A DNA stretch of 27,101 bases. Origin: Candidatus Thorarchaeota archaeon (GTDB lineage Archaea > Asgardarchaeota > Thorarchaeia > Thorarchaeales > Thorarchaeaceae). The stretch covers positions 1 to 27,101 of the forward strand of contig SDNP01000036.1 in NCBI GenBank assembly GCA_004524445.1, read 5' to 3'. Below the pieces are notes generated by a model. It made no database searches. It worked only from the letters and a program-made list of their open reading frames with translations, and had not been told where the DNA came from. Position numbers and translations under genes: made by a program. Below, piece after piece: positions 255 to 26,377 of the stretch (positions are counted from its first letter, which is position 1; the number at the start of each line of letters is the position of its first letter).

Positions 255-1346
255 ATGAAAGGTATGACAAAGGTTGCAGTAGTTGAAACATCTCCGAAGA
301 CTGTATTCGATGATATCGCCAGACTTCTTGACCTGGCCGAATACGATAAGTATGTATCAAAGGACGTCGTTACAACCATCAAGCTCAACCTTTCATGGAG
401 CAAGTTCTATCCTGCTTGCTCGACAAACCCGTATATCTTCGATGGCCTGCTCCGGAAAATGATTGCTGATGGATTCGACAACCGAAGAATTCAAGCCGTC
501 GAGAACGAAACTGTTGTTACAAATATCTACGAGGGAACTCACGGAAATAATTGGTATCCTGTGATAAAGAAGCATAAAATCAAATTTCTACCACTAATCG
601 AGGCAGAATACGTCGATGTTGAACTACCAAGAGAAACCATTGTTCTAGAAGATACTTTCGGAGAAGTTATTGCTCCCAAGGAGATATTTGGTACGAATAT
701 CATTCATCTCCCCACCATAAAGACACATGGCCATACAGAGATGACCGGGGCGATGAAGGATTCCTTTGGTCTATATCTAACTAAGAATCGACATCTGGCA
801 CATCTAAAAATTCACGAAGTTCTGGTTGACCTGTTACTTTTGCAGAAGACAATATCGCATTCCGAATTCGTACTTACTGATGGATCTATTGTTGGTGATG
901 GGGCTGGCCCCAGGACAATGGAACCGAAAATCGGGAACGTCCTGCTGGCAACTAATGACATGGTCGCAGCCGATACCGTTCAAACTAGACTGATGGGTAT
1001 TGACCAAAGAAAGGTGCACAAATTGCAGATTGCGAGTAGATTGGGCCTGGGAGAATCAGACCCAAACAAGATAGATATTGTTGGTGATTTCGAATCCTGG
1101 GAAGATTTGCCTAACTTCCATCTCAACACAGGCAAAAGCCCAGTAATAACGTGGAATAGAGGGTTTTTGAGATTTCCAGGCATGGAAACATTGCTCTTTC
1201 GCTCACCACTTATGTGGCTTCCAACACAGTTATCGGGCCTTTATCATGATGGAATTTGGTTACCATTGAAAGGAAGGAAGTGGGTAAATTGGTTCCTTGA
1301 AGAAACAGAATGGGGAGAACTCTGGAAATCATATAATGAGGAATAG
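255..1346 (+). CDS. DUF362 domain protein
   Basis: 363-aa ORF (alternative ATG at 264) with DUF362-like motifs IKLNL, HLPTIKTHGHTEMTGAMKDSFG, LTDG..GDGAGP and DMVAADTV. It has only one Cys and no ferredoxin module. Confidence 0.8.
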   Translation: MKGMTKVAVVETSPKTVFDDIARLLDLAEYDKYVSKDVVTTIKLNLSWSKFYPACSTNPYIFDGLLRKMIADGFDNRRIQAVENETVVTNIYEGTHGNNWYPVIKKHKIKFLPLIEAEYVDVELPRETIVLEDTFGEVIAPKEIFGTNIIHLPTIKTHGHTEMTGAMKDSFGLYLTKNRHLAHLKIHEVLVDLLLLQKTISHSEFVLTDGSIVGDGAGPRTMEPKIGNVLLATNDMVAADTVQTRLMGIDQRKVHKLQIASRLGLGESDPNKIDIVGDFESWEDLPNFHLNTGKSPVITWNRGFLRFPGMETLLFRSPLMWLPTQLSGLYHDGIWLPLKGRKWVNWFLEETEWGELWKSYNEE

Positions 1347-1347
1347 T

Positions 1348-1352
1348 GGAGG
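1348..1352 (+). promoter_or_regulatory. Shine-Dalgarno site for the UbiA-family gene
   Basis: GGAGG lies 8 nt upstream of ATG 1361, just after the DUF362 stop. Confidence 0.65.
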
Positions 1353-1360
1353 CTCTAAAC

Positions 1361-2314
1361 ATGGCGGCAATTGATTACATAAAACTCATGCGGGTGCATC
1401 AGTGGTACAAGAACCTTCTTGTGTTTCTGGCAATAATTTTTGTTGAGCTACCTAGTGAGTGGCCCTGGGAAACACTCCCCGCAGTATTGAACCTAGCCAA
1501 TTATCCACCTCTAATTCTTGGATTTTTGGCCTTATGTGCAATGTCCAGTGCTGGCTATATTGTAAATGATTTCAAGGACATGGAACAAGATGCACAACAC
1601 CCTGAGAAGAAGGAGCGGCCGCTACCCTCAGGTTCAGTATCTAAGACGACTGCACTATCACTGGCTGCAGTCTTAGCCATTGGCAGTCTGACGCTATCTT
1701 ACATTTTGAATGGCATGTTCTTTCTAATAGTAATCCTCTATGTCTTCAACTCACAGGCGTATAATTACTTCTTGAGAAAATGGGCAGTTGTGGATGTCAC
1801 AACAATAGCCGTTGGATTTATCCTAAGAGCTGTAGCAGGCACATTCTTGATAGGTGTTGAGTTTACTTCGTGGTTAATAATCGGTGTATTCTTTGTTGCG
1901 CTCGTTCTAGGGTTTGGTAAGCGAAAAAATGAGCTTCAGCTTTTAGGTGAAGATGCTGCTGATCATAAGTATGTATTCACGCAGTACAATGAGAAAATCC
2001 TCGATCAAGCCATAGTGATGTCCTCAACATGGGTTGTGTTGTTCTACGCACTCTACTGCTATCGTAACTTCCTTGACGTGATGGATACACAACCAATCAT
2101 GCTTACTATTCCCATTGTTGCAGGTATCGTTCTCCGCTATGTATATCTCATTCAGACAGGCAGTCCGGTGGGAAGAAAGCCACATTTAGCAATAAAAGAC
2201 AAGGGCATACTGGTTGGGGGAGTTCTTTTCGCTGTGGCACTTGCTATCACGCTCTTCTTCTGGACTCCCATTATGCTATTCATCCAAGGCCTCTTTCCGC
2301 CGGTTAGTCCATAG
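1361..2314 (+). CDS. UbiA-superfamily membrane protein of the polyprenyl-phosphate phosphoribosyltransferase (DPPR synthase, Rv3806c-like) subfamily
   Basis: Carries the subfamily motifs MRVHQWYKNLLVF, YIVNDFKDMEQDAQHPEKKERPLPSG, GFILRAVAG and GKRKNEL, and has multiple hydrophobic segments. The start was moved from GTG 1346 to ATG 1361 because of the SD. Confidence 0.85.
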   Translation: MAAIDYIKLMRVHQWYKNLLVFLAIIFVELPSEWPWETLPAVLNLANYPPLILGFLALCAMSSAGYIVNDFKDMEQDAQHPEKKERPLPSGSVSKTTALSLAAVLAIGSLTLSYILNGMFFLIVILYVFNSQAYNYFLRKWAVVDVTTIAVGFILRAVAGTFLIGVEFTSWLIIGVFFVALVLGFGKRKNELQLLGEDAADHKYVFTQYNEKILDQAIVMSSTWVVLFYALYCYRNFLDVMDTQPIMLTIPIVAGIVLRYVYLIQTGSPVGRKPHLAIKDKGILVGGVLFAVALAITLFFWTPIMLFIQGLFPPVSP

Positions 2315-2321
2315 GTGTAGA

Positions 2322-3005
2322 ATGATGAGTGAACGTCTATCAGCCTTTGATTTCCATACACATAGCCTACACTCAAAGGATGGGCTGAATAAACCGAAAG
2401 ACCTCTTTAAACTGATGAGAAAGAAGAATCTGAGAGGCATTGCCCTCACTGAGCATTGGAGAGCATCAACCCTCGATGTAATCGAAAAAGATGATAGGTT
2501 CATTCTTCCTGCAGCTGAGTTCAAGTCTACTGATTACGGGGAGCTCATAGGCGTGTTCACTCAAAACCATATTGAGAACAGGAGATTTATTGAGATTGCA
2601 GAAGATGTACATGACCAGGGCGGGTTCACCATCTTACCGCATCCCTGTGACCCAATACGAGGACAGACTGCAATAAGAAAGAGGCTTCCAGACTGGATTA
2701 TCGATAAGCACGTTGACTTCATTGAAGGAATCAATTCTAGATGCTTCATACCCCTGTTCAATAAGTGGGCACAAGATTTGGCAGACAAGCTCGAAAAACC
2801 CATGACAGCAGGGAGCGACGGACATTCCTTCCTAGAGGTTGGAAATGCGAAGACTTGGCTTCAAGATATATCAACTGCAGAGGATATCTATAGAGAATTG
2901 AAGAGAGGAAGAACCCAGATAACAGGGCATTGTTCGTTCTTGTTTGTGCATATTCCCACATTCATTTGGCAAAGAGCGAGGAGAGTGGCCTATGATGGTT
3001 GGTGA
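2322..3005 (+). CDS. PHP-domain phosphoesterase
   Basis: Has PHP metal motifs DFHTHSLHSKDG, LTEH (TDH variant), PHP, EGINSR and AGSDGH. The start is ATG 2322 or 2325 after AGGTG at 2313-2317. The ORF-track start at 2214 overlaps ubiA and is unlikely. Confidence 0.85.
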   Translation: MMSERLSAFDFHTHSLHSKDGLNKPKDLFKLMRKKNLRGIALTEHWRASTLDVIEKDDRFILPAAEFKSTDYGELIGVFTQNHIENRRFIEIAEDVHDQGGFTILPHPCDPIRGQTAIRKRLPDWIIDKHVDFIEGINSRCFIPLFNKWAQDLADKLEKPMTAGSDGHSFLEVGNAKTWLQDISTAEDIYRELKRGRTQITGHCSFLFVHIPTFIWQRARRVAYDGW

Positions 3006-4032
3006 AGATCAAGTTACCCAGGAAGAAGATTCTTTCATTAGTACGGGACGATTGGTTGCCTTCGTTCTAATTGGAATGGTCATCTACCTGCTAATGGCGA
3101 TTCTAGACCAGTGGGACCAAGTCATAGCCACTATTGCGGCGATTGAGTGGTGGTGGATTGTACCCACAATGATGGGGCTTTCATTTCTTAACTATTTGAT
3201 TCGTTATGGCAAATGGCAATACTATTTGCGACAGATTGATGTCAATATTTCACATACAGACAGCTTCAGCATTTTCCTAGCTGGCTTTACGCTGACAATT
3301 ACACCAGGGAAAATCGGAGAGGCAATAAAGGGCTATTTTTGTAGAGAGGTGAATGGTTCCCCTATTGCGAAGACAGTTCCGGTCGTCATCTCTGAGAGGG
3401 TCACCGATCTCTTGGCGATGGTTATAATTTCGGTCTTATCCTTTGCAGCTATTTTAACATCAGGAAATCAGTTGTTGCTGGTATTGTTTGCAGGCGCACT
3501 AGTACTGGTTGGAGCCATTGTCCTCACAAATAGCAAATTCTACAACCGAATTCTGAAGAAACTCACAACCTTTGGACCTTTGAAGCGTTTTGAGGAAAGT
3601 GTTGATCAGGTAGAAGACACGATGGTGAGAACGCTTTCACCCAAGCCCATGATCATAGGCACTTTGATCAGTGTTCCTGGTTGGTTTATGGAGTGCTTAG
3701 AATTATGGTTGCTGTTGAGCATAGTGACAGGGGCCGGACTTCCTGCTTTTACATCAACTTCCTTGTTCCTTCTCGCACAAGCAACATTTGTTCATGCCAG
3801 CGCATCGGCTGTCGGGGCCATTCTTGTCTTTCTCCCTGGGGGCCTTGGAGGCTATGAAATTTATGCAAGAAGTGTTCTGACAACATTTGGAATATTGGCA
3901 GCTGTTGCAACTGCGTCTGTATTCTTAATCCGTTTTGTGACGCTCTGGTTTAGCGTTATTGTTGGATTCGTAGCGCTGGCGTTCGTAACTAGAAGAAATC
4001 GTGAACGTGAATGCCAAACCCAGCAAGCTTAA
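2992..4032 (+). CDS. Flippase-like membrane protein (lysylphosphatidylglycerol synthase TM / UPF0104 family)
   Basis: Family motifs RYGKWQYYL, TPGKIGEAIK, ERVTDL, LPGGLGGYE and LIRFVTLW, with multiple TM segments. GAGGAG at 2978-2983 precedes ATG 2992, which overlaps the end of the PHP gene. Confidence 0.85.
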   Translation: MMVGEDQVTQEEDSFISTGRLVAFVLIGMVIYLLMAILDQWDQVIATIAAIEWWWIVPTMMGLSFLNYLIRYGKWQYYLRQIDVNISHTDSFSIFLAGFTLTITPGKIGEAIKGYFCREVNGSPIAKTVPVVISERVTDLLAMVIISVLSFAAILTSGNQLLLVLFAGALVLVGAIVLTNSKFYNRILKKLTTFGPLKRFEESVDQVEDTMVRTLSPKPMIIGTLISVPGWFMECLELWLLLSIVTGAGLPAFTSTSLFLLAQATFVHASASAVGAILVFLPGGLGGYEIYARSVLTTFGILAAVATASVFLIRFVTLWFSVIVGFVALAFVTRRNRERECQTQQA

Positions 4033-4050
4033 AACAAACCTAGTTTGTTT
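4032..4050. terminator. Short inverted repeat at the end of the four-gene operon (candidate terminator or operator)
   Basis: AAACAAAC-CTA-GTTTGTTT: perfect 8-bp arms with a 3-nt spacer, starting at the last base of the TAA stop. Confidence 0.35.
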
Positions 4051-4119
4051 CAACACATATGGTTAACAGGCGATACAAAAAATCGAGCTAGTATAATCAG
4101 TGAAAAAGTTGTGAAATAG

Positions 4120-5157
4120 ATGAGTGGAATGGATCAGAAAATTCCAGACAAGAACGATATTGAAACTGCGGTTCAAAATGCAGAAGAGGTTGTAACAAAG
4201 GAAGAAATTCAAGACATTATTTCTAGAAAGACGTTTAACTTCTATTATGGAACAGCACCCACAGGACCGTTTCATTTTGCATATCTAATTCCCCTCAATA
4301 AGCTGATTCAACTGGCAGATATAGGCGGTAGAGGAACGATTCTTCTGGCAGACTACCATGCACACTTGGACAGCCAGAAAACCTCCTTTGAACTTATGGA
4401 GATTCGTTCAAAATACTACGAGGAATGCATTCGAGGGGTATTGGGAAAAGACGCCAATAAGCTTGATTTCGTTCGCGGCTCGTCATATCAACACGAACGA
4501 GATTATGTAGAAGACCTCTACAAGATTGCGGCCAAGGTAACAACTACCCGAGCAAAGAGAGCGGCAAGTGAAGTAGTAAGAATGAGGGGTGATGCTAAGG
4601 TCTCCGAATTGCTATATCCACTCTTACAGATACTGGACGTTAAGTATCTCGACGCGGATATTACCGTTGGCGGGATAGACCAAAGAAATATCTACATGCT
4701 TGGCAGGGAGCTCCTCGAAGATGTGGGGGGTAAGAAAGGAGCATACATCTTCATGCCATTGCTTCCTTCGCTTCGCGGTGGGGGAGCAAAAATGTCTGCG
4801 AGCGATGCACTATCTCACATCAGAGTAACCGACGATCCCAACGAGATAAGATCAACAATCGAAAAGGCCTATTGCCCAGCTGAAGACCTAGATGATAATG
4901 CTATCACGTCCACAGTCAGATACATTATCTTTCCGCGAACCGGCAAAATTGTAATCCCACGGAAGGAGAAATTTGGAGGCGATATCGAATTCTCAAGAAT
5001 TGATGAATTCGAAAAGGCATACACTTCTGGAAATCTTCATCCCCTTGACGTAAAACAGGCAGTTAGTGGATATCTTATTGAGCTTCTCGCACCCGCCAGG
5101 AAGTATTTTGAGAGGCACTCAGATTTGCTTGAAGAGATTGAAACAACGTTTGATTGA
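4120..5157 (+). CDS. tyrS: Tyrosine--tRNA ligase, archaeal/eukaryotic type
   Basis: Class I motifs YYGTAPTGPFHFAY (HIGH equivalent) and KMSAS (KMSKS). TyrRS-specific motifs LADYHAHLD, LLYPLLQILD, GGIDQR and LHPLDVK. Confidence 0.95.
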   Translation: MSGMDQKIPDKNDIETAVQNAEEVVTKEEIQDIISRKTFNFYYGTAPTGPFHFAYLIPLNKLIQLADIGGRGTILLADYHAHLDSQKTSFELMEIRSKYYEECIRGVLGKDANKLDFVRGSSYQHERDYVEDLYKIAAKVTTTRAKRAASEVVRMRGDAKVSELLYPLLQILDVKYLDADITVGGIDQRNIYMLGRELLEDVGGKKGAYIFMPLLPSLRGGGAKMSASDALSHIRVTDDPNEIRSTIEKAYCPAEDLDDNAITSTVRYIIFPRTGKIVIPRKEKFGGDIEFSRIDEFEKAYTSGNLHPLDVKQAVSGYLIELLAPARKYFERHSDLLEEIETTFD

Positions 5158-5200: not shown

Positions 5201-8200
5201 TCAATCCCAATCAAGTCCGAGACTCTCGAGCAAAGCTAAGATATCTGCCTTTGACAAGCCTTTAGCTTCTTCTAGAATGAGGTCTATCTCATCCTTCGGA
5301 AGCCCTTTCTTAAGCAGCTTTGACCTTAGATCTTCCATATCCTCTGGTCTTTGTTCAAGAGATTCCTCGCTTGCTGCTTCACTCGGGACTTCTTTCTCAG
5401 CCAGCTCATCAGCCCGGCGAGCTTCCTCCTGTTCTATGACCTCTTTTAGGAATCCGGGGCGCTCACTAGCTTTCATTCGCGATAGGTCACGCCTAAATGC
5501 CTGGATTTCTTCATCACTCAGACCTGTGATTTCCACAAGTCTAGCAAGCAGTTCGTTCACTTCTGGTGCTCTGATATCAATTGGGATTTCGGCCACTTCG
5601 GCCGCGGTCTTCTTTATGGATACAGACTTAATCTCTTCATTGACTGCTGACAAGACGGTTGCTTGCCTGGAGGGGACATCAGCAGGGTCAGGTATTTTGC
5701 CCTTTGAGAGCGCTTTTATCATCTTATTCATTTTTCGAACGATCTTGGGAATGCTCCACACCTTGACATACAGCACAACCAATACTGCAATAATCATCAA
5801 TGATGTACCGCCACCGACTATGGCATTCTGCTGTGCTTGCTGTGCAGGGGTCAAATCGGAGAATACAGTGAATTCCACAGATTGAGTCTGATAATCCTTC
5901 TTGGCAAATTGCACATCGATATACATCGTATATGCCTGCAGAATCTCGAAATACAATTCGTAGGTCCCATTATCATAATCCGTGAGTCTGTCAGGATAAT
6001 ACCTTATTTCGCCTTCTGTGACGCTGACTGTTGGAACTACACCTGTTATGCCAGTATCATGGTCTGTGTCTAAATACGTAATGCGAATTGTGACCGGGGC
6101 ACCCGGGTATGCATCGATTTGGGTCCGAGCATAGATTAAATCTGTGTAGACCTGCCGCACGTTGAGAAGTATTTCATGTGATGGAACTCTGTAGAGATTT
6201 GTGGAAAATGTCAATGCGACACGATACTGACCTATTGGTAGATCACCGGGAACTGAGAAGGAATAACTACCATTTTCAAGAGGAATCAATTCAGTACTTC
6301 CAAGTGTTTCCCAAATTGCTAAAGCGTTGACGCCACCGACCACTTCATTGGTGAATTCATTGACGAGGTTCACGATGACGGTTGCAGTATCATTCACAGG
6401 AATGTCGATTTGAGATATTGCATCTATGAAAGCGTCGGTTGGTTTTACAAGCAGCCCCACAGTAATAGAACTGCTCTGGTAATTGAGCTTTGTAACTGAG
6501 ATTGTAACATCATATAGTCTGGGAATAGAATTATTGACGAAAATGGAAATTACATAGCTTCCATTTTCCAAGTCATATGCGGTTCCTGTGCCGCCTGTCC
6601 ATTCTATATCTACATTGGCACCCACTATTGGGGCATTAGTGTGTGTGTCATTCAGGTAGATTGTGTAATTTACAGTATCTCCTCTATATGCGTCATTCGT
6701 CAATACATTCGCAGCGGTTTCTGTAGGAATAGCCAAGATATTGAATGGCTGAGTTCTAGATGCCTGGGCATAGCCATCTTTTCGCGCAATGACCCTAAGA
6801 TACAGAGTTTGTGCTGAAAAGAGCGAGCTATTTATCTCGCCATAGTAGCGCCCATCTGGAAGCTGTTCCATTGAGGCAGTATAGCCTCCCAGTACTAATG
6901 AAATGTTTGCGCCATCGAGATAGCCACCATAGTAGGTATCGTTGTACTCAACATAGATTCCCAGAACATCACCGTATGTCACTGACAAAGAAGTAGTGCC
7001 TTCCTGCACGAGTATGCTAGTGGGAATTGGGGTCACTATTACATCCACAGATATACTGAGAAATTGATGATTCTCAGCACTGGCATATATCTGCAAGTCG
7101 TAAGTACTAATTGAGAATCCCGAAACATTGAGCGGCCCTTCGTAGAATCCTGTTGTGCCATTTCCGCTTAATGAAACTATCGTATTATTCCAGACCATAT
7201 AGACAGTTGCATCAGCAACAGGTTCATTGTTGGTAGTATCGTTCAGATAGATCCATAATGAAGACTCTGTTTCTCGTACAATCTGGATCGATGAGCTTTC
7301 TGGGAGAATTTGGCCCGTTGCTCTGTAAATTACGAGTGTAAACTCACGTTGTCTTGTTTGATAATACTGTCTGGAAACCGTAATCAGTGGACTGTAAACT
7401 CCGTAGCTCACCTGAGAAGTATCCAGATTTACATAATATGTCCCATTGCCCGCATCGATGCAATTGTACAACGTATCGTTGAACGATATTGTGGCAGTCA
7501 TGCCAGAAAGCAGGGTGCCATAATAGGAGTCTGTGACAGTGAAGCTAACCATCTTCATCTGACCCCAGTCGGAATAGTATGTGGACTTCTGCAAGTTGAT
7601 CTGAACGGTCGGGGCACCCGGCTGAATAGAGGGACTAACTTGGCTTTCTTCATAGTACTGAAGTGTTGCAGTAATGGTGAAACCATATTCTTGTGCAATC
7701 AACCCCGTTGTATTCAGCACTACCTGGTATCGACCTCCTGAGAATTCTACCACAGTGTAACTACGTCCGTACAAGTCCGCCCAATCGCTAGAGATAGTTG
7801 CACCCTCGATTCCTACCTCGTGGTCGGTATCTGTATATGTTACATTAACGCGGAATGGGTCGCCAATGGGAATCACGCCTGCAGGAGGTGTCTCATAAGA
7901 GATTGATGTAAGGATGTTGCGGATTGTTGCAGGGATATTTCTAGCAGTTCGGGATGCGTAAAATGGAATGCCATCCTTGGTAAATGTAACCTCGAAATGG
8001 AGTTTGCCAGTCTGTCCGAATTGCCCACTGGGTATTAACAGGCGATACAAGCCATCTCCTAATTCTATTGTATAATTCACGAAAGAAGTCAGATTAGTGG
8101 AGCTGACAGCTAATTCTGCACCTTCGATTCCTTCATCTGACAAGTAATCGATATAGCTAAGCTCAATAGTGATATTGTCGCCCAGAGGTGTATCTTGTAT

Positions 8201-11200
8201 TAGCGGGAATTGAATCTGCGTCGGACGTTCGATGGTGGTAGCAAGAACCGTCTTAGACCTTGCTGAGTAGTATGGCAGAATGCTGCTTCTGTTAATGAAG
8301 ATTCGAACCGTGTGTCCAGATACAAGTGCTGAATCATCGAGAAGAGTTGAATTGAATTCTATCTCGTAGTAGTCGGAAAATTGGGTCAGTAGGAATGAAT
8401 TATAGGGTATGAGGATTTCACTCTCACCATGTGACAATATGATGTATGATTGGTCAATATCAATTAGTTCACTTGTTAGAAAGTCCTCGAACTTGAACCG
8501 AATTGTCATATTCTCTAGAAAAGCTACGCTACCCGGCGTCTTGGTTATGAGAATTTGAGTTGGTCGTTCGATAACACGAGCATTCATACTTTTGACGACA
8601 TTGGCATAGAAGGGGGCTCCTGACTTCGATGCAGTCACATTCAGCGAGTAATCAGCAGGAGCACCTAATGATGAGCTGTTCAGTAGAATGGTATACTCGC
8701 CGGGGCTGGTTTCTGAAACCCAGTAATCTGTGTTAAAAACAAGAGTCAGAGGATCGGATGTCACAATTATGGATGCACCACTAATGCCCTCACCCGTTGA
8801 ATCATCGGTATAGCTCACAAGTATTGTGAAGTTCTCAAGGTATGCCGTTTCATCCGGGCTCTCGTATCCTAGCTGAGTATTTCTCTCGGAAACTGTCAGC
8901 GTGAAAATATCCAATGCGTCTGCCTCATAATTTCCCCCAGAGTACGATATTGACGCATTGATTGTGAATTGACCCACAGTGCCATTGAAAGATGTATTCA
9001 GAGTGACCCTATAGTGTCCTTGCCCAAGGTATTCGACGTCATAATATGAATCCGAGATATTTAGTGATAGGTTTCCCGTCATGCCGTCGGAACTACCGGA
9101 CAGCCGGTCCGTGTATTGGAAGTCGATAGTGATATTATTTGCATACTGACCCGGAGTGAATGGATCATGAGTCAGCTGGGTAGGTCGCAAGGTAACCATG
9201 ACTAAGAATTCTTTGTTTTGTATGGAGTCATAATATGGTGTACCAGTCCATGTAACGTTCAGATGGAGAGTGAAATCGCCCACACCACCGAGAGATGCAG
9301 AGTCTATTGTAACGAAGAATGTCTGACTTGCAGCGCTGTATGCAATTGTATAACCCACTGTTACCTCGTTGATTGATACCTGCAAGCTAGTTGAGTTCTC
9401 AATTACCATCGTGGTGAGGGAATCAATGAATTGGAATTGTAGAGTAGTTGTTTCACCATACGCCGTTGATGGAACGGGATTAGTATCTAGGTACGTTGGT
9501 CGACTGAGAGTAAGAAGGTTTACTGTGAGGGTCTGATTCTCATAAAGCGGGGCAGTAGCACTACGCCATCCGAAGAAAATCTCGAAGCTAAAGGTACCGA
9601 GCCCTTGCAATCGAGAGCTATTCAAAGTGAAATAGTAGAGACCCGGTTCAGTTACTGATTCCCAGACCACGAAGTCGCTCTGGACAGCAGGATTTTCTTC
9701 TCCTAAAGCTGTCACCATCAGGATGACATTCTCTGAAAAATTCGATATCTGAGATGAATTCACAGCATCTAGATATACAATACTGAATGAGAAGTTCTGA
9801 AGATAGTTCACCGCTACCGGTGCGTTTTCAAGATAGAGGTCTGTCTGACGCCCAATCAATCTGACTCTTGTATTGATTTCCTTTGATTCATATTTTCCAG
9901 ATAGAGAATCAATACTGATTGTGAGATTTTTCCACCCTATGGTTGACCATTGTGTGCTATCTATGGAGATATTGTAATGCCCGGTGCCAAGAAGAGAGTC
10001 GGTTACTGAGAATGTGATAGAAGACAATTCAGGAGTTGCCAGAGTAATCAGCAGATCGCCGGTGTCATTTGAAATACCTACGTCCAAGTCGGTATCCTCA
10101 AAGAAGACAAGGATGATAATATCATTGCCATGGTCGGTCTGCTGTACAGGCTCATCCAGCAGGAACACAGTCTTGTGTTGCTTGACGATTACATCAATGA
10201 CAAATGTCTGGTTTTGTATCTGATATCCTGTCAAATCGAATCGTACGGGATACGTTGCTAATGCATCATTATCAACAGTATAAATAGTTACATTGTAGGA
10301 TCCAGGACTGACTTCTTCCACTGTGTAGTTCATATCACCTTGCACGTGATTAAGGCTCCAGTTCGACACAATTGAGTTATTCATCCCAGTCATAGGTTCA
10401 TCATGGTCTACGTCTAACCATTCCACGGTGAATGAACGTGCCTCGCCAACAGGAATATCCAGAACGTTCTGTAGATATGTCGCTCTAGTATAGAGTTCTC
10501 GCACCGTAACATAGAGAAGACGGCTTTGAGGAAGAATAAAGTCTGCTGTGGCGGTTAGATTCACAACATAATCATCGAGTTCCATACCAGTTGTGTCGAA
10601 AGCCACGTCGAAGGTGCCAGGGCTTCCGCTGACTTCAGCGATATAGTATGGATTGCTCCAATTCGTTGTGAGCTGCCCATCATCAATCCCAGATCCGAAA
10701 TAGTCCTCGAATCGGATTCTGAAGGTCAGATTATCTCCAATTGGACCATCTTGCGAAGGTGAATCAGGAGATATAATGATAATACTCCCATCCAGATTTA
10801 GGTTCACTGTAAGGGTTTCGCTTATCGAATCGAAATTGGGATGATTCCATTCAATATCGATGATATACTGTCCTTTCGCACCCAGGTCGGTTGAGTCCAG
10901 TGTAACAATGTATTCGCCATCACCATTGTCCCCAAACTGGTTTATGCCATCAGTCCAATTGTATGTCATGACGCCCCCTGGTACAGTGACTCCAGGAATA
11001 TCCGTATCATTTACTAATATCCGCACCAGGAACAAGTCAGGATATGTCACGTTTGTGATCCAAGTAGATATGGCATCGGTTGGACTCAACAAAGTGGCAG
11101 TAGAAGAGTGGATAATATTGAAGCTTCGAACAAAGAATCCTGTCTTGTTCCATGCCGACCCTGCCAAGCTATTGTTTAGAATGGCTTGAACCTGCCATTC

Positions 11201-12874
11201 TCCAGCACTGGAATTAGTGCCGAAAGTAAGCACAGAGGTCGCGGCGTGACCTGTTGAATTGATAACTGCAATCTCTGAGTACCATTTAGAGCCTGATGGG
11301 TCGAATACGGTGATATTCACCGGTAGGCCAGAGAATTGAGAGTCATGAACAGTCACGAAACTGGACTTGTCATTAGCTCTCAAATCAATCTGTTGTGCAA
11401 CCTCACCTGTGCCTTCATGGTGCATCAACAGATTCTGGACCATATTTGGCGCATCGCTTCTTATCAGCCAGTATCCCCACCTATCATCGTGATCATATGC
11501 AGGAATCCTTGCCCACCATTCACCCTCATTCCATTCCGATAGACTCTGCGTTGTCAAAAGCGGAGAACCAACATAGTACACATCGCGATTCTGCGGAAGT
11601 GTTATGTTGAAATCGTATCGGTTATCGTATCCGTCTGGAATTTCTGCAAAGAACCAAGTTTCATAATTGACTGCTGAGGCATTTGTGACAGAATATGTTT
11701 CTCCATATGCAGTTGGGCTCTGAGTGAGAACAGTCATGTTATTTGCTCTTGCGTAGAGATTTGTGGTAACTGAGAAGTCAACTCTGATTTGCCTGTCGGG
11801 ACTGGGAGGAAGAGGATCGGGAGTCCAGCTGAACTCAATGGAAACCGGACTGGATGTCCAGGTGCTGGATGGCGTGTATGACAAGTTACCCAACCCATAT
11901 TGAGTTGTACCACCAATTGTGTAATTGTTTACATCATTGTCTTCGGCTTTGAGATTTACATTGCTAGGGGCTGCAAGTGTCTTCAAGTATAGCTCCACAT
12001 TGTCAACTCTAGCCTCAGGGTCTAGATTAGGATCATAGTTTACCGTTTGCTGGCTATACAATCCGACCTCAATATAGACACCATCTGACAAGTCAAACGG
12101 AGTCAAGTCGTCGATTTCAATCAATCCGCTATCAAACCATGCTCGAGCTGTATCAACATCATTGAATGACTTTTGCCACACTCGTTGGTTGTAGTTGCCA
12201 GTTTCAACGGTAACATAAATTGCCACAAATCCATCTCCACCTGACCACGATGAGTCGATCCAATAATCAAGCCTAAGTCCAGCCCAGACTACATCTCCAC
12301 GAGGTACGGTCATGGTTTGTGAAGCATAGGCTATTTTACCCTCATTGGGATCGCCAGTATAGCTAAATTGCGTGCAGTTATCATCAGTGCCATGACCACC
12401 CTCAAGCCATGAGGCGTCACCACTGACATCAGTCAAAGTCCACGACGATGGTGAAGTTTCCATGTCAGGGTCTTGTACCCAGGTTCTATTCTCGGTTAGG
12501 TCATTCACGGACAAAAATACGTTATATCCTTCCCAGCCATTACCCAAAGGAATTTCTACAGATGTATTGGTGGTTGCTTGACTAGTGCTATTGTATGTCA
12601 TCTGATTAGCAGAAAATGTATCAGTTCTGTTCCCGTATTCAGTGACAGGTAGACCGGAGGAACTGCCCTCCCATGACGACATAGCTTCTGATGGTGTCGC
12701 ATAGTTGTTTGTATCAAATTGCGGAGGAGCATCTCTCCTTTCAGTTATAAAGTCATGACTAGGTAGTGCATTCTGTTTGCCAGTTGACCCTGATATGGTG
12801 AAGACAGAGCTGAATATTGGCAATATCAGTATTGCCGCGAGAACGAGTGAAACGATTATTGTTTTCCTATTCAC
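5201..12874 (-). CDS. Giant type I membrane surface glycoprotein A (2557 aa): signal peptide, CBM-like plus MG2-like head, 17 Ig-like repeats, TM helix, 184-aa cytoplasmic tail
   Basis: N-terminus MNRKTIIVSLVLAAILILPIF. The ectodomain is Thr/Ser/Asn/Tyr-rich with many N-x-S/T sequons. Single TM at about aa 2351-2373 (nt 5756-5824), followed by a charged helical tail. GTG start with a perfect SD. Confidence 0.9.
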   Translation of the reverse strand: MNRKTIIVSLVLAAILILPIFSSVFTISGSTGKQNALPSHDFITERRDAPPQFDTNNYATPSEAMSSWEGSSSGLPVTEYGNRTDTFSANQMTYNSTSQATTNTSVEIPLGNGWEGYNVFLSVNDLTENRTWVQDPDMETSPSSWTLTDVSGDASWLEGGHGTDDNCTQFSYTGDPNEGKIAYASQTMTVPRGDVVWAGLRLDYWIDSSWSGGDGFVAIYVTVETGNYNQRVWQKSFNDVDTARAWFDSGLIEIDDLTPFDLSDGVYIEVGLYSQQTVNYDPNLDPEARVDNVELYLKTLAAPSNVNLKAEDNDVNNYTIGGTTQYGLGNLSYTPSSTWTSSPVSIEFSWTPDPLPPSPDRQIRVDFSVTTNLYARANNMTVLTQSPTAYGETYSVTNASAVNYETWFFAEIPDGYDNRYDFNITLPQNRDVYYVGSPLLTTQSLSEWNEGEWWARIPAYDHDDRWGYWLIRSDAPNMVQNLLMHHEGTGEVAQQIDLRANDKSSFVTVHDSQFSGLPVNITVFDPSGSKWYSEIAVINSTGHAATSVLTFGTNSSAGEWQVQAILNNSLAGSAWNKTGFFVRSFNIIHSSTATLLSPTDAISTWITNVTYPDLFLVRILVNDTDIPGVTVPGGVMTYNWTDGINQFGDNGDGEYIVTLDSTDLGAKGQYIIDIEWNHPNFDSISETLTVNLNLDGSIIIISPDSPSQDGPIGDNLTFRIRFEDYFGSGIDDGQLTTNWSNPYYIAEVSGSPGTFDVAFDTTGMELDDYVVNLTATADFILPQSRLLYVTVRELYTRATYLQNVLDIPVGEARSFTVEWLDVDHDEPMTGMNNSIVSNWSLNHVQGDMNYTVEEVSPGSYNVTIYTVDNDALATYPVRFDLTGYQIQNQTFVIDVIVKQHKTVFLLDEPVQQTDHGNDIIILVFFEDTDLDVGISNDTGDLLITLATPELSSITFSVTDSLLGTGHYNISIDSTQWSTIGWKNLTISIDSLSGKYESKEINTRVRLIGRQTDLYLENAPVAVNYLQNFSFSIVYLDAVNSSQISNFSENVILMVTALGEENPAVQSDFVVWESVTEPGLYYFTLNSSRLQGLGTFSFEIFFGWRSATAPLYENQTLTVNLLTLSRPTYLDTNPVPSTAYGETTTLQFQFIDSLTTMVIENSTSLQVSINEVTVGYTIAYSAASQTFFVTIDSASLGGVGDFTLHLNVTWTGTPYYDSIQNKEFLVMVTLRPTQLTHDPFTPGQYANNITIDFQYTDRLSGSSDGMTGNLSLNISDSYYDVEYLGQGHYRVTLNTSFNGTVGQFTINASISYSGGNYEADALDIFTLTVSERNTQLGYESPDETAYLENFTILVSYTDDSTGEGISGASIIVTSDPLTLVFNTDYWVSETSPGEYTILLNSSSLGAPADYSLNVTASKSGAPFYANVVKSMNARVIERPTQILITKTPGSVAFLENMTIRFKFEDFLTSELIDIDQSYIILSHGESEILIPYNSFLLTQFSDYYEIEFNSTLLDDSALVSGHTVRIFINRSSILPYYSARSKTVLATTIERPTQIQFPLIQDTPLGDNITIELSYIDYLSDEGIEGAELAVSSTNLTSFVNYTIELGDGLYRLLIPSGQFGQTGKLHFEVTFTKDGIPFYASRTARNIPATIRNILTSISYETPPAGVIPIGDPFRVNVTYTDTDHEVGIEGATISSDWADLYGRSYTVVEFSGGRYQVVLNTTGLIAQEYGFTITATLQYYEESQVSPSIQPGAPTVQINLQKSTYYSDWGQMKMVSFTVTDSYYGTLLSGMTATISFNDTLYNCIDAGNGTYYVNLDTSQVSYGVYSPLITVSRQYYQTRQREFTLVIYRATGQILPESSSIQIVRETESSLWIYLNDTTNNEPVADATVYMVWNNTIVSLSGNGTTGFYEGPLNVSGFSISTYDLQIYASAENHQFLSISVDVIVTPIPTSILVQEGTTSLSVTYGDVLGIYVEYNDTYYGGYLDGANISLVLGGYTASMEQLPDGRYYGEINSSLFSAQTLYLRVIARKDGYAQASRTQPFNILAIPTETAANVLTNDAYRGDTVNYTIYLNDTHTNAPIVGANVDIEWTGGTGTAYDLENGSYVISIFVNNSIPRLYDVTISVTKLNYQSSSITVGLLVKPTDAFIDAISQIDIPVNDTATVIVNLVNEFTNEVVGGVNALAIWETLGSTELIPLENGSYSFSVPGDLPIGQYRVALTFSTNLYRVPSHEILLNVRQVYTDLIYARTQIDAYPGAPVTIRITYLDTDHDTGITGVVPTVSVTEGEIRYYPDRLTDYDNGTYELYFEILQAYTMYIDVQFAKKDYQTQSVEFTVFSDLTPAQQAQQNAIVGGGTSLMIIAVLVVLYVKVWSIPKIVRKMNKMIKALSKGKIPDPADVPSRQATVLSAVNEEIKSVSIKKTAAEVAEIPIDIRAPEVNELLARLVEITGLSDEEIQAFRRDLSRMKASERPGFLKEVIEQEEARRADELAEKEVPSEAASEESLEQRPEDMEDLRSKLLKKGLPKDEIDLILEEAKGLSKADILALLESLGLDWD
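5855..11110 (-). repeat. 17 tandem Ig-like beta-sandwich repeats of about 100 aa in protein A (protein-level repeats)
   Basis: Recurrent consensus T-x-L...G...(I/V)x(V/F)x(Y/F)xD...(G/P)IxGA...W...(E/D)...GxYx(I/V)x(L/I)x(T/S)...Y, counted by eye over aa ~589-2340. Confidence 0.75.
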
Positions 12875-15800
12875 TCTTCATCACCTCCAAGTTGATCCAA
12901 AAGCGCTTGTATTTCGGGCTTTGTCAAGCCTCTTGCCTGCTCAACCATTAATTCCACTTCGTCCTCTTCAATTCCCATTTTCATGAGCTTGTTTCTGATG
13001 TCGTCCAGTTCTTCTTCTGTGAGCTTCTCAGGACCCATCTCTTCTACAAGTTCTTCTTCTCGTGCAGTTTCTGCGATTTCTTTTGCACGCCGGGACTTCT
13101 CTTGTCTGAGAACCTCGCCAATGAATCCCGCGCGTTCACTTGGTGCCATCTTTTCTAGGTCGTCTCGCAAGACAGACAGGTCATCTGCAGTGAGTCCTAC
13201 AACAACCGCGAGCTCATCAAGAAGCTCTTCAACGTCCAGAATGCTAACATCTAACGTCGATGGCGCTACATCATCAATGACCTTCCTAATGCCTAAAGGC
13301 TCCAAATTCTCATTCATGGTTTTCAGCAGCATGGTTCTCCGGTCATTGACATCTGCTCTCTCTGGAATTCTTCCCTTTTCCAGGGTTGAAACCATTGACC
13401 TAAGTTTTCGAAGGAGCTTGGGAATCGAAAGCACCCTGAAGTACAAGGCTGCTAGTGCAGCCAGCACAAGGAGAATGAGAGTTCCGTTAAAGAATGTCTG
13501 TACCAACAAAGCTTGTTCAGGGCTGATTTCTGAGTAAATGGGGATTGAAACAGTGCTAGACTGATAATCTCTCTTATCTAGGGTTATCTCGAGGGAATAC
13601 AGGGCGGCTTGGCCAGCCACGAATCTGAATACATAGGTTCCATTGTCATAATCTATTTCTTCATCTTCCAGCCGAGTTAGTCCAAGACCAGCCGCTGTAA
13701 TAGTGGATGTCGTATTCGATGCATCCAGAACAGCCATGTCGTGATCCAAATCCCAATATGTAACCGTTACGGAGAATGGCTCACCTGAATATATTATGCT
13801 GGGACTTACATCCCACAATAACTCAGTCAGAATGGCTCTAATTGTAATTTCCACAACAAGTTCTCCGGTACTATAGTTGCCCTTTGTGAGAAGAATTCGA
13901 ACCACATATGGTTGATTTCTGATCTCAAGCCGACTGAGATTAGTTTCGGCTGGACCGAACCGGTAGGAGCCATTTCCTAGATTCGCCAAGCTTAGGCCCC
14001 CAAATTCCCAAATCGCACTCGATGACGCATCACCTATTAGTACGTCATTCAGCGTATCATTGAAAGTGAATATGACCGAGTAGTCATCACCAACTGGAAA
14101 GACCCACTCTTGCGCGCCAATAACCTCTGTAGTGATAGGATTGACCAAGAGCTTAGCTTGAGTTTGTGCTTGTTTGTGTGCACTCTTTGCAAGAGTTATG
14201 GTGATATCATATGGAACCAGTCCTGCGCTAACGACACTTGTATTCACAACAAGCGAATAGTTACCGTTTCCAAGGTCGGAGAGAACTCCTACTGTATCCT
14301 CAAGCTGGAATGTGCTAGTTGCATCGGGAACACCCACAGCATTATGGGTATCATTGAGGAATAGATAGAAGGTTACATTTTCACCATAATACGCTTCTTG
14401 CAGAACATCTCCTAGAACTAAGATTCTTGTGGGGATCGGGTCAAGGTCCAAAGTAAAATCAAGTGATGATGTGGTGTATCCGGGCTTCGAACCAAAGATG
14501 GTAAGAGTCCATGTTCTTAAGTCTAGGCCTGTTGTGTTTACATCGGCCCTATAGTATCCGTCACCAGTTTCAGTTAGATTTCCAGTGATATCACTGACAG
14601 AGAATGAGAGGGTGGCACCGACAACAGGTAGAGAGAGGTCAGTGTTATTGAGAAATACCTGGATTGGTATTACATCTCCAATGATTCCTGAAACAACTGT
14701 TGTGTCTTCGACTGATACTATCTGAGTTGTCACCTCACGTATTTCGATATTAAGCGGAACAGTGAGGGATTTGTAATTCGCAGACTTTGCAGTTACAATT
14801 ATGAGATGATTTCCAGCAGGAACGTCTGACACAATGAAATGTCCAATGTATAGCTCTTGGGTTTCATTCCAAATCAGTGTGCCTTGACCATATGTCCAGC
14901 TGAACGAAACGGTACCTACTGCAATGGATGTGCTATTTGCAGTTACTACATAATCAGCCGTGATTGTCAAATTCTGTCCACTTACAGCTATTACTGGATC
15001 AATATCTGCAGAGAGAGATGATGCCGCTTTTTCAATTCTGATTGAAAAATCACGGCTTCTGGATTCATGGTCCTCCAGCTCAAATGCCACGGTGATCGCA
15101 TATTCACCTGCGCTTACCACAGAGGAAGTTATGTTTCTACCGTAGAGACCCTCACCTAGTTCCTGCAACTCGTAGACAACGCCACCTAGAGTTATATTCA
15201 CATTCCCACCAAGTACAGGGCTGTCATCGCGACTATCCGTGATATTTGCTACGAACTCTATTTCATCCCCCCAAACAGGTGCGATTGGGGTCAACCCCAA
15301 ATTGATTGAGATGGGCGTTGGTGAGAGCAGCAACTCTATAGCCACTGTTCTGTTGACGTGAAGGTACTTAGACGCGTTTATTGAGAAGGAATATGATTGA
15401 GCGGATAGACCTGATGTTTCTAATGTTAGCTGATATATGCCGTTTCCAATTTCTGTCAAGGAATATGGGTTCCCAACTGCAACACCCCAGTCGGTACCAA
15501 CGGCAGCGTCCTCTATCCCGATACCTTGAGAAATGTCGGAGTACGAAATGTTCACAACAATTGTATCACCAGTGTAGTATGTACTACCTGGTTCCAAGTC
15601 TAAAGTCAGTGTCGTCGACACCGGATTCACTGTTAGGCTAAACTGGACAGAAGTCAAGTTGGCATAGAATGGAGAACCTAAATACGTGATGTTCGCTAGA
15701 AAGATGTACTTGCCCAGCTCGCTTAGATCCGTGGTGTTGATGATGATTTCATACGTTCCGTCCCGCCTATCAGTTATCCAGTGCCCAAACGAAGAAACGT

Positions 15801-18800
15801 TCTCACATGAAACTGAAATCTGAGCTCCTGCGATAGGGTCACCACTGAGATAATCCGTGTATTCTATTATTGCGGTTCCATTGAAGTTGATGAATGCAGG
15901 CGGTGTTGATAGTACTGCTGCTTGGGTAAATCTAGCAGTTATAGCGACCTCAGTAGAAGCACTTGCATTGGAATAGAAGGGAGCTTCATCGCCCCATTGA
16001 ATCTCAACAAACAGCGGGTAACCCTGAACAAGTTCAGCAACCAGAATTGTTGAATTTATTGAGATGATGTATACTCCTGAGCTGCCCGTGAGAACATATT
16101 CAGAATCCAGCAGAAGAATATCTGAACCATGTTTCAAGACTAGGTGGCTCTTATTGATGCTAACTAGAGATTCAACAAGAGAGTCTGTCACTGTAATTTC
16201 GAATGTAACATTCTGTAGATATGCAGTATTCAGTGGTGATTCTGAAACGGATAATTCGAGCGGTCGCCGAGAAACCTCAATATCAACACTAGTTGACCGC
16301 TGAGTAAAGAACGGAGAACCTGTGTAGTTCACAATGATATCAATTGCATATGAGCCAAATGTGCCCAATGCTTCTGTTGAAATTCGTATTCTGTAATTGC
16401 CATCACCCAGAGAATCAATCCAGTAATTCACATCTTTTTCTAGAGTTTCAGCTGAGGTTTCTGATGAAATGAAAACATTTGCATTCTCGATGCCAAATCC
16501 ATTATTATCATCAATGTACTGAATCGTGATGTTAGCTTGAGTCAGGAAGGGGGCCAAGTCCGGCAAATCGCTAGTTAACTGAGTACGTCTTCTACTCAAG
16601 GTGAGGTAGAAGTAATCGGAAGCATTGGCCGCAAAGCGATCACCGCCATAGATGATAGTGGCATTGACTCTATAAATTCCAAGTGATGCAAAGGCGGTCG
16701 TATTTAGTTGAATTGTGTATGTGCCATCACCATTGTCATGAACGGTATAGTAATCACTCAACCATGAATCCAGTGTGAGCTCAGCGCCATCCATTCCTGA
16801 TAAGGAGTTGTCATCCAAGTCGGTGTAGAAAAAGTCCAGCGTCAAATTGTTACTGTATTGAACGGAATCGTAGCTACCATGAGTGAGGGAAGTGTACCTA
16901 TACCTTAGCTCTATGGTGATTGCAATTCCTGTTCTATTTTGATAAAAGGGAGAACCACTCCAGATAACATTAAGATGGAATTCAAATGTCCCGACATCGC
17001 CCCAATAAGTGGTATCAATGCTCAAGACAAAGAGTGCACTTGTTTCGAGATAGTATGTATCTAGTACCACGCCACCTTCTGAAACAGATATTTCTATGCT
17101 AGAGCTGTTTTCTATTCTCGAACTGCTTAGAACGTCATTATAGCTGAATGTGAAGTTTACAGGTTTGTCATAGGCTGTAATGGGCAATGGCGTGTACTCA
17201 ATCGAAGTCTGACGGTATATTGTTCGTACAGTAACTGAGAGAGATGCATTTGAATACAGTGGCAATTCCCCTTTCGTCCAGTTAGCGTAGACTCGTAAGT
17301 CACATGTTGTGATTCCTGAGAGATAGTTGGTACTGAATTTGATTTCATACTCTCCCGAACCAATTTCAGTCACCATAATCAACGAGCTATTGAGTTCATG
17401 GCCACTACTCAGTACAAGGACGTACATACTTACATTGAATGCGTACGGACCAGTCGAATTCACGATACCGGAGTCGGCTGCTACGTCCCAGTAGAAAACA
17501 GTGAAGGTAATATTTTCTCCATAGGGGGTTGAAACAGGATTGTTGCCAATAAACAGAGTTGCAGGCGTATCAGATATCCGGACACTGGTTGAGATAGTCC
17601 CGTTTCCATATTTCTCGATCGATCCTGTCCAATTGGCGAAAATCTCAAGGTCTTTCCAACCAATAGAACCCCACTGGTCTGCAGCAATCTCGATGATATA
17701 TTCGCCAAGTGTCGTGCCATTATAGACCGTGTACTCAATTCCTGGAACCTCGTCCGACAAAATGTAAATCAGCACATTATGTCCATTAGCAGTTCCGTTC
17801 CCAATTCCTGTCTCCAGTGTCACGTCATAATAGCTGACCGTTACGATGATAGTGCCTGTATAGGGTGTTGGCTCTATTGGGTTTACTAATGAAAATGTAG
17901 ATAGGTGAGATTGAATATCTACATCTATGTTGAAGGTATGATTTTGAGCCCCGTATTTTCTGACTTGAAATTGAACAGGATGGCTACCTATGAAATCGGT
18001 TTCCACCGAATAGAAGTCAACCCTGTATTCTCCCGGACTTATTTCAGTCACTGTGTAATTTGAATCTCCTTGAGCATGATAGTCAGACCAATTGCAAGAA
18101 ATAGCGCCGGCGGCACCTGTTATTGGTTCGTTATGGTCGGTATCCGTGTAGGTCAATGTTATAGAGCCTTGGGTCCCAACAGGCAATGGTAAGTAACTTG
18201 AAGATACAGCAATTGAGGTAAAGAGCTGTCTAACCTCTAAGAATACTGTAGTCTGAGATGTGATGTAATAATCAGCTACTGCAGAAATGACGATCGCGTA
18301 AGTATCAATCATCGCTGTTGATGTTGATAAGTTGAGCATATAATGACCCGGGCTACCGGCCACGGGACTAACAGAATATTGACCATCTGTCCAATTGCAT
18401 ATGATTGTGGCGTCCGTTATTCCTGCATTATCTTGATCATTGAATACTACTTCAATGGTTGCACTGGAACCTAGCGGAGTTTCAACACTAGGAGCATCTG
18501 GAGAATAGAGAGAGGTTTCTTCAACAATATTGATTGTGAATATTCTCTCTATCGGGTCATAATGCTGTAATGACCATGTGATGGTAATTTCGTAACTGCC
18601 TCTGCCCGGTAAATCAGAGGTATCTAATACAACGCTGTATTCGCCGGTGCCCATGTCGCTTAGAGGCTGCGTGCCCGTAGTCCAATTATATGTGGTTATC
18701 CCTCCGGGTAGCAAATCAGCATTATCGGAATCGTTTACTCTAACTTGTAATAACATCTCTTGACCAAGTGTCAGATTTTTTGTCCATGTACTCTCCGAGC

Positions 18801-20637: not shown

Positions 20638-20646
20638 TGGAATGTT

Positions 20647-20651
20647 CCTCC
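20647..20651 (-). promoter_or_regulatory. Shine-Dalgarno site for gene B
   Basis: The minus strand reads GGAGG-AACATTCCA-TTG. Confidence 0.65.
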
Positions 20652-20734
20652 GGAAGATAAGGCGGTGAGACCTAGATTCGACCCATAAGCCGAATCTCAT
20701 TTGTTCAGTAAAGATGCTACACACTTATGGATAA

Positions 20735-20842: not shown

Positions 20843-21202
20843 ATGGTTGAATTCTACCAATTAGATAAGGCTGAAAGCGCTTCTAGAGAAGGATACATAG
20901 CAAGCTATGTTGGTGATATTGTCTTCAAAGAACCTTCTAATACAGCAGGGGTGATCATGATCGAACTCGGTGTGGGGGCAACGACAAGACCACATGCTCA
21001 TGAAAACCTACAAGAGGTCTTTGTTGCACTCGGTGATATGAAGGCAACTGTCGCAGGAGAGAACTACATCCTTCATCGCGGGGATATTCTATTGGTAGAA
21101 CCTGGCGAATTTCATTCTTTCCAGGCATATCCAGCACAGGCTGCTAGCATGATAGCAGTCAAAATTCCTAACCTGAAAGATGACAAAGTAAAATCGAATT
21201 GA
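20843..21202 (+). CDS. Cupin domain protein (Cupin_2-like)
   Basis: 119 aa with motif 1 PHAHENLQEVF and motif 2 GDILLVEPGEFHSF, giving the H-x-H...E...H metal ligands. Confidence 0.85.
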   Translation: MVEFYQLDKAESASREGYIASYVGDIVFKEPSNTAGVIMIELGVGATTRPHAHENLQEVFVALGDMKATVAGENYILHRGDILLVEPGEFHSFQAYPAQAASMIAVKIPNLKDDKVKSN

Positions 21203-21221
21203 TGTCGGCTACAAATCCAAT

Positions 21222-21638: not shown

Positions 21639-21655
21639 AGCTCACACTTCATTCA

Positions 21656-25217: not shown

Positions 25218-25233
25218 GCAGAGGACCCCTCAT

Positions 25234-26364: not shown

Positions 26365-26377
26365 GAGGATTAGAGGA

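Follow-up and report, generated by a model that had tools for sequence, protein, structure and literature searches.

A conserved, predicted folded tail as a candidate cytoplasmic handle of giant surface proteins in Thorarchaeia-like Asgard archaea

What might the long tails do that close two giant surface proteins of an Asgard archaeon just behind the membrane? The question arises from a 27,101-nucleotide stretch of Candidatus Thorarchaeota archaeon DNA (GenBank assembly GCA_004524445.1, contig SDNP01000036.1; hereafter the window), whose minus strand carries two adjoining genes encoding protein B (12871-20724, 2617 amino acids) and protein A (5201-12874, 2557 amino acids). The stop codon of B overlaps the GTG start of A in the sequence GTGA, and the two genes are translationally coupled through this overlap. 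The proteins align from end to end with 32% identity. Each has an N-terminal hydrophobic signal, a repeat-rich ectodomain of ~2,350 residues, one transmembrane (TM) helix and, directly behind this single C-terminal helix, a tail: the last 184 residues of A (5204-5755) and the last 185 of B (12874-13428), both on the minus strand. Pfam matches to the ectodomains are weak and immunoglobulin-like, e.g., filamin and MG2. An earlier reading of this DNA, made from the sequence only, had proposed that the tails are conserved between the paralogues and that each contains two related three-helix units, similar to UBA or CUE domains and separated by an acidic linker, which could serve as a docking module for ubiquitin-like modifiers, cytoskeleton or trafficking machinery, or as an oligomerization module. 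Its coordinates and its four quoted unit sequences are exact, and all are found in the translations.

We hold, with moderate confidence, that the tail is a lineage-specific cytoplasmic docking or assembly handle common to the giant N-glycosylated single-pass surface proteins of Thorarchaeia-like Asgard archaea. The case is architectural. It draws on the probable cytoplasmic location of the tail, its predicted fold, the strongest constraint in the protein, the presence of one cassette on three protein types, a tethered bundle that can be duplicated, and restriction to one order.

The tails most likely lie in the cytoplasm. There are 69 N-x-S/T sequons in the ectodomain of A and 72 in that of B, and none in either tail. 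The 30 residues after the TM helix have a net charge of +6 in A and +4 in B. Because sequons are confined to the ectodomain and positive charge follows the TM helix, as the positive-inside rule would have it, we infer that the tails face the cell interior. The two helices that mark this boundary are:

5756-5815, minus strand: single C-terminal TM helix of A, GGGTSLMIIAVLVVLYVKVW, at the hydropathy maximum near the C-terminus of the translation; it marks the start of the tail.
13429-13482, minus strand: TM helix of B, TLILLVLAALAALYFRVL, from hydropathy and translation.

Conservation of the tails is stronger than had been claimed. Tails A and B share 41% identity (E 2e-45), compared with 32% for the whole proteins. 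Among 55 orthologues, tail A is the part of protein A that is best conserved at this length: with a mean identity of 0.56, where the median is 0.45, it ranks 5th among 2374 sliding 184-residue segments, and the few segments that rank above it all overlap it. Tail identity exceeds ectodomain identity in 55 of 56 full-length relatives. Thus, the tails are clearly conserved among orthologues as well as between paralogues. Across an alignment of 61 tails, mean column identity is 73% and the residues P3, R7, M12 and P22 are invariant. So is the stretch M..SER.GF..EV..QE..R, which the sequence-only reading had described as common to the two tails and which is also invariant in 13 B-type tails. Both tails of the window carry the four residues, the stretch and the C-terminal bundle, and a tail profile searched against the organism's own genome finds them with E 2.7e-81 (A) and 1.0e-65 (B). 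We considered the invariant serine of M..SER as a phosphorylation site and rejected this; by eye, distant relatives have aspartate there, which fits a helix N-cap.

Each tail can be described as three modules, the last of which follows an acidic linker:

5705-5755, minus strand: first part of module 1 of A, a basic juxtamembrane helix, SIPKIVRKMNKMIKALS (AlphaFold2 helix at tail residues 2-17; predicted local distance difference test score, pLDDT, 84-94).
5390-5755, minus strand: proximal, probably cytoplasmic domain of A (modules 1 and 2, tail residues 1-122; pLDDT 78-94 in ten-residue blocks).
5348-5389, minus strand: acidic flexible linker of A, VPSEAASEESLEQR, poorly conserved (net charge -3; pLDDT <50 at tail residues 123-131).
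5204-5347, minus strand: module 3 of A, a predicted C-terminal three-helix bundle with the conserved end ...LLESLGLDWD (AlphaFold2); it contains unit 2 of the earlier reading (5219-5332).
13063-13428, minus strand: proximal, probably cytoplasmic domain of B (modules 1 and 2), collinear with that of A.
13018-13062, minus strand: acidic linker of B (net charge -4); alignment gaps are located here.
12874-13017, minus strand: module 3 of B, a C-terminal three-helix unit ending ...LLDQLGGDEE (module profile E 1.7e-18 in the genome search).

Behind the juxtamembrane helix, module 1 continues through a KGKIPxP...R turn into a second helix at tail residues 30-41. The proximal domain of A holds unit 1 of the earlier reading (5438-5554) together with the invariant M..SER.GF..EV..QE..R stretch, and the invariant columns of the B proximal domain are common to 12 B-type orthologues. 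Module 3 of A and module 3 of B are 43% identical, and the linker differs in length and sequence among types. An SH3-ligand reading of the K-G-K-I-P-x-P-x-x-V-P-x-R turn was set aside by eye: only P22 and R30 are conserved, and the A and B tails of the window have no PxxP. The conserved helix at the C-terminus was also weighed as a possible MIM-like element.

Predicted structures bear out the two three-helix units and the linker between them. An AlphaFold2 model of the whole tail, made with the 61-sequence alignment, has a mean pLDDT of 79.8 and a predicted template modeling score (pTM) of 0.38. Its helices comprise the juxtamembrane helix (2-17), a helix after the conserved turn (30-41), a first group of three (64-77, 81-92 and 99-122) and a second group of three (137-149, 154-164 and 169-178). 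The acidic linker that had been proposed between the units is real and corresponds to a low-confidence segment at residues 123-136. The low pTM of the model fits two domains on a flexible tether. A model of the last 51 residues by themselves, made with 106 diverse units, was a compact three-helix bundle of ~45 residues (pLDDT 85, pTM 0.62; helices 4-17, 21-31 and 36-45). As modeled, then, the tail forms helical domains and is neither disordered nor plain coiled coil. By eye, the bundle of A (5204-5332) has a 14-15-residue periodicity (LRSKLLKKGLPKDE / IDLILEEAKGLSKAD / ILALLESLGLDWD), with each helix ending in G-L-x-K-x-D/E, and it may have arisen by triplication of one helix-turn unit.

Are the two units of a tail related to each other, as had been claimed? 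Part of this claim holds. Pairwise comparison of unit 1 with unit 2 gives z of 0.7-2.5 against shuffles, i.e., not above shuffles, and a hidden Markov model (HMM) of the C-terminal unit finds no match in the proximal region and no second copy in any A- or B-type tail. Comparison of the two units with hhalign gives a probability of 1.5% from the A-type alignments alone and 81.8% from diverse alignments of 70 and 106 sequences (score 27.5 over 31 columns). Column shuffles of these alignments had a mean score of 10.3 (standard deviation 2.3, maximum 17.6), with 0 of 150 reaching 27.5, and a reversed alignment scored 9.3. The aligned core reads LS-x-x-E-h-x-x-h-R-x-x-L, followed by a loop and a second helix ending in Q-E or Q-A, and a distant common origin of this helix-loop-helix core in both units is plausible. 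However, hhalign pairs helices 2-3 of unit 1 with helices 1-2 of unit 2, and the register proposed earlier is therefore one helix off. The 'GLSxxEI' likeness of the units is probably a recurring helix-capping turn.

The proposal that the bundle is a UBA- or CUE-like reader of ubiquitin, or of another beta-grasp modifier, is not supported. There are reasons to consider it: the bundle and the UBA (PF00627) and CUE (PF02845) domains are all three-helix bundles of ~40-45 residues with a glycine-hydrophobic pair in the first loop and a leucine-rich last helix, and SAMP, ThiS/MoaD and Urm1-like proteins occur in Archaea generally. But no UBA or CUE family was listed in Pfam scans of the tails at E up to 1 or 10, and none was among the 25 Pfam families most often matched (of 125 matched) by the 106 C-terminal units. 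Searched against the whole genome at E up to 0.1, PF00627 matched one unrelated frame and missed the tails; at E 1e-4 it matched nothing in 61 Asgard genomes. Nor was there a UBA or CUE chain among the listed fold matches of the tail models in Foldseek or VIA-align; for the bundle, all Foldseek rows against the PDB had E >2.8 and the best Z among the top 50 VIA-align rows was 5.6. Small helical bundles score weakly in such searches, however, and these lists do not argue firmly against the fold. The UBA loop motif M-G-F/Y, the CUE motif M-F-P and the hydrophobic patch are not conserved in the bundle. Over the 106 units the loop-1 consensus is K/R-G-hydrophobic, with only the glycine and the hydrophobic residue kept: A-type units have KKG(M/L), C-type units (K/R)G(V/I)P, and B-type units alone M-G-I.

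The lineage itself also argues against a ubiquitin reader. The ubiquitin family PF00240 is present in 0 of 86 genomes of the carrier family. As a positive control we used 189 Asgard genomes, each at least 90% complete, of which 146 had PF00240. Outside the carrier lineage the count was 146 of 148, with two negatives, whereas there was no match in 39 other sampled genomes of the carrier family, in this genome or in the two nearest single-genome families. The loss or absence of PF00240 is clean throughout the carrier family. Hatano et al. (bioRxiv 10.1101/2021.08.17.456605) likewise found Thorarchaeota to be without ubiquitin. Given the absence across the family and this report, a ubiquitin-docking role of the tail is very unlikely. 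The broader idea of a reader of some beta-grasp modifier is in our estimation highly improbable; no search covered beta-grasp proteins other than PF00240.

Other families and folds gave little to build on. Pfam and NCBIfam have no model for the tails, and NCBIfam has none for the ectodomain halves either. The commonest weak Pfam matches of the 106 bundle units were RecX_HTH1 (48 units), Bap31_C, RecX_HTH2, VIT1 (19 units), cwf21 and Pex14_N; all those viewed in detail were below cut-off. Foldseek against the PDB returned nothing at E <1 for the whole-tail or the bundle model. VIA-align over 48,161 chains reached a best Z of 6.6 for the proximal helices (64-77, 81-92, 99-122) and 5.6 for the bundle, values of a size that is common for helical bundles. 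Its rows were generic three-helix structures: an adenylosuccinate lyase subdomain, paramyxovirus P X-domains, RAP D1, designed HHH mini-proteins and the VIT1 metal-binding domain. Beyond designed helical repeat proteins and the N-terminus of uS15, profile searches of the PDB gave only a borderline match to RAP D3 (E 0.0095). In the ESM Atlas, a feature search had no usable match and a shape search returned only generic helical matches.

The resemblances to RecX and RAP deserve a closer look. RecX repeats (PF21982, PF02631) are, like the bundle, tandem-capable three-helix units of ~45 residues, and they are its most frequent weak Pfam match (best E 2.3e-4 for PF21982). However, the detailed RecX matches score 12.9-18 bits against a gathering threshold of 26, span ~20 residues and cover only the end of helix 1 through helix 2. 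At E up to 10, the profile search of the PDB gave no RecX chain, and RecX is a soluble RecA regulator whereas the bundle belongs to a membrane-protein tail. SAP/HeH (PF02037) matched 6 of the 106 units (best E 0.008); the score for one tail was 13.9 bits, where the cut-off is 23.9. Among PDB sequences the tail profile has its best match, a borderline one, in RAP D3 (tail residues 71-142), RAP D1 and the RAP-megalin complex have Z of 4.5 and 4.1 against the bundle, and both RAP (D1-D3) and the tail string three-helix bundles on flexible linkers. These scores lie inside the generic helical background, and RAP is a soluble eukaryotic chaperone of the endoplasmic reticulum lumen; homology of the tail to RAP is unlikely.

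The acidity of the bundle raises another possibility, that it binds metal or other cations like the cytoplasmic three-helix metal-binding domain of the VIT1 transporter or EF-hand-like units. Its mean net charge is -5, E6 and E23 are nearly invariant, VIT1 metal-binding-domain structures score Z 4.1-4.2 beside the sub-threshold Pfam VIT1 matches, and the top Foldseek row, non-significant, is the polycystin-2 EF-hand. We nevertheless consider cation binding very improbable: all of these matches are below threshold and inside the generic three-helix background, and the bundle has neither an EF-hand loop consensus nor conserved His, Cys or Met ligands.

How widely is the tail distributed, and on what proteins? 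An exhaustive tail-profile search over 1.84 billion protein cluster representatives found only 117 proteins. The carriers are three paralogous giant types (80 A-type, 17 B-type and 67 C-type cluster representatives) with ectodomains of up to 5.5k amino acids, and the proximal domain is the portion that matches most C-type giants. In full-length relatives the tail is at the very C-terminus of proteins of up to 5,543 amino acids (proteins or open frames up to 5599). Members of the proposed tail family follow immediately upon the one C-terminal TM helix of a giant repeat protein. Most shorter carriers are on short contigs and look like fragments, and three small proteins that have the proximal part but no TM helix are all on short contigs. 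Relatives with names are all annotated as proteins of Thorarchaeota, Sifarchaeia or Promethearchaeota metagenome-assembled genomes. In a C-type subgroup as many as four tandem copies of the bundle occur; among all the tails the copy number ranges from one to four. Two metagenome clusters (P0173 and P0169) have foreign N-terminal parts, one bacterial-permease-like and one resembling a helix-turn-helix plus TM protein, fused to the last 35-50 tail residues; judged by eye, these were set aside as probable assembly chimeras and not taken as real domain transfers.

The genome studied here has one A-, one B- and one C-type giant, and every giant single-pass protein found in it carries the cassette. 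The third giant, a C-type open frame of 4,918 codons, has the same tail with a longer linker (contig C25:14027-14758). Among 400 Asgard genomes searched with a profile, the bundle was present in 80 of 85 genomes of the carrier family and in the single genome of a sister family (81 of 86). Elsewhere there were marginal matches only, in 4 of 31 and 2 of 5 genomes of two families (E ~1e-5). The range of the C-terminal bundle is a single order. The proximal domain has weak matches (E 1e-5 to 1e-9) in a second Asgard family, where they close frames of ~1.4k-2.7k codons; by eye, unit-1-like hairpins seemingly recur two or three times in these tails, and a search with the tail of this family returned four relatives.

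The juxtamembrane module reaches further than the rest of the tail. It occurs alone in single-pass proteins of 566-607 amino acids in two further Asgard families. A 193-codon frame of this genome has a short N-terminus, one TM helix and a copy of the module (contig C62:45177-45311, ..IEKGKDPPTLQVSTRQDIITEIF..); its match is weak, with E 0.004 across the genome and 9e-6 in a local search of small size, and the frame looks like a tail-only mini relative without an ectodomain. This spread is what one might expect if the juxtamembrane helix and the proximal domain were stop-transfer, quality-control or sorting determinants for the biogenesis or membrane retention of very long secreted chains, and the juxtamembrane invariants P3, R7, M12 and P22 are in keeping with such a role. 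However, stop-transfer needs no 185 folded residues, and a duplicable C-terminal bundle on a flexible linker would be left unexplained. We therefore regard this explanation as quite unlikely.

The arrangement of the genes bears on a different explanation, in which tails of the A, B and C types associate with one another under the membrane and cluster the giants as pairs or a lattice, with A and B as an obligate heteromer. Coupling of B and A through the GTGA overlap would suit such partners. In at least 28 genomes two tail matches share a strand at a distance of ~7.7 kb, the arrangement seen in the window. A profile search of this genome finds the bundle in no frame beyond the three giants, and thus no soluble carrier and no homotypic adaptor. 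Furthermore, three-helix bundles and long charged helices often mediate oligomerization. However, the full-tail model has no confident packing between its two domains, and one tail on three types with differing ectodomains suits a common external partner equally well. A complex prediction for tail A with tail B, both given as alignments and run without controls, scored 0.00, which speaks neither for nor against binding. Self-assembly is possible but, on balance, somewhat unlikely.

The gene pair and its surroundings vary among genomes. One genome (G371, contig C22:6012-30114) has, on one strand, four tail matches at intervals of ~7.7-8.1 kb; this points to two tandem B-A pairs and to duplication of the giant pair as a unit. 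For the neighborhoods we considered window positions 255-5157 and 20843-27100. The genes flanking B in the window encode a cupin, a 138-amino-acid membrane protein, a PIN-helical protein of 608 amino acids and a CoA-binding protein. In three other genera a TyrRS gene adjoins the A-type tail; in two of these a DUF362-UbiA-PHP-flippase cluster is beside the A-type tail, and in the third it is upstream of B. In two genera the window's B-flanking genes are found beyond the glycolipid cluster, on its far side, and rearrangement has therefore occurred. None of the window's neighbor genes was found in the sister-family genome.

There are also environmental traces of the gene. Two salt-lake metatranscriptome runs contain short contigs of this gene or a close relative (5416-5582 and 5893-6400), with ~2-8% of positions different; one of these contigs covers 167 nt (5416-5582) with 3 differences. 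A freshwater-sediment DNA run contains a relative that differs at ~4% of positions. These traces hint at transcription of the gene and at a wider habitat range, bearing in mind that RNA libraries can contain DNA.

We return to the view of the tail as a shared docking or assembly handle. The general idea of a folded cytoplasmic docking or oligomerization module, which the earlier reading had put forward, fits a tail that is the best-conserved region of its protein, is modeled with pLDDT of 80 (whole tail) and 85 (bundle), and occurs on three giant types with one to four bundle copies. In the mechanism we propose, the basic juxtamembrane helix, predicted to be amphipathic and followed by the K-G-K-I-P-x-P turn, would lie on the inner face of the membrane. 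The proximal domain and the tethered bundle might then recruit one shared cytoplasmic partner or assembly factor, which could give all the giants on the surface of a cell a common connection to one intracellular machinery. Differences in bundle copy number may tune avidity. Several points weigh against this proposal. In four other genomes examined there was no conserved small cytoplasmic gene beside the pair as a candidate for the partner. The fold searches give generic three-helix bundles only (Z of at most 5.6 for the bundle and 6.6 for the proximal helices) and no functional hint. Lastly, the high conservation of the tail could equally reflect biogenesis, membrane retention or self-assembly.

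Known surface proteins offer two useful comparisons. Archaeal surface anchors, such as the PGF-CTERM/archaeosortase system and short-tailed C-terminal TM helices, resemble the tail and its TM helix in providing a C-terminal membrane anchor for a large N-glycosylated surface protein. Typical archaeal anchors end within a few residues of the membrane or give way to lipid, whereas the tail described here adds 185 conserved, predicted folded residues beyond the TM helix. Closer in design are eukaryotic adhesion receptors such as integrin beta and the classical cadherins. These too are giant single-pass glycoproteins: Ig-like units repeat in the ectodomain, the tail has a conserved segment near the membrane and a docking region beyond it and is better conserved than the ectodomain, and paired subunits are encoded together. 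The likeness is only an architectural analogy, with no relation in sequence or fold found, and we know of no talin-, kindlin- or catenin-like partner in this lineage. We speculate, as an unlikely but attractive extension of this analogy, that the tail could be the intracellular half of an adhesion-receptor-like system that couples the paired giants to a cytoplasmic scaffold, for which Asgard actin with its regulators, ESCRT or an adaptor peculiar to the lineage could be candidates.

As a kind, the single-pass surface receptor with a conserved docking tail is already known. Neither Pfam and NCBIfam nor the literature we found describes such a tail on giant surface proteins of archaea, and the one seen here is built of unannotated modules. 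The case against a ubiquitin-reader role removes a tempting but very probably wrong eukaryote-like annotation, and what is left is an unannotated domain family that marks one Asgard order. The tail, with three separable modules and a free C-terminal bundle, is also a concrete bait for finding a connection between the surface and the interior of these cells. In prokaryotes, surface proteins and adhesins usually stop at the membrane anchor or shortly after it. A predicted folded tail of 185 residues, better conserved than 2,300 residues of ectodomain, would be a receptor-like design in the archaeal group closest to eukaryotes. If the adhesion-receptor analogy were true, these proteins would be a prokaryotic, independently evolved counterpart of integrin and cadherin tails, passing surface contacts to cell shape or the reverse.

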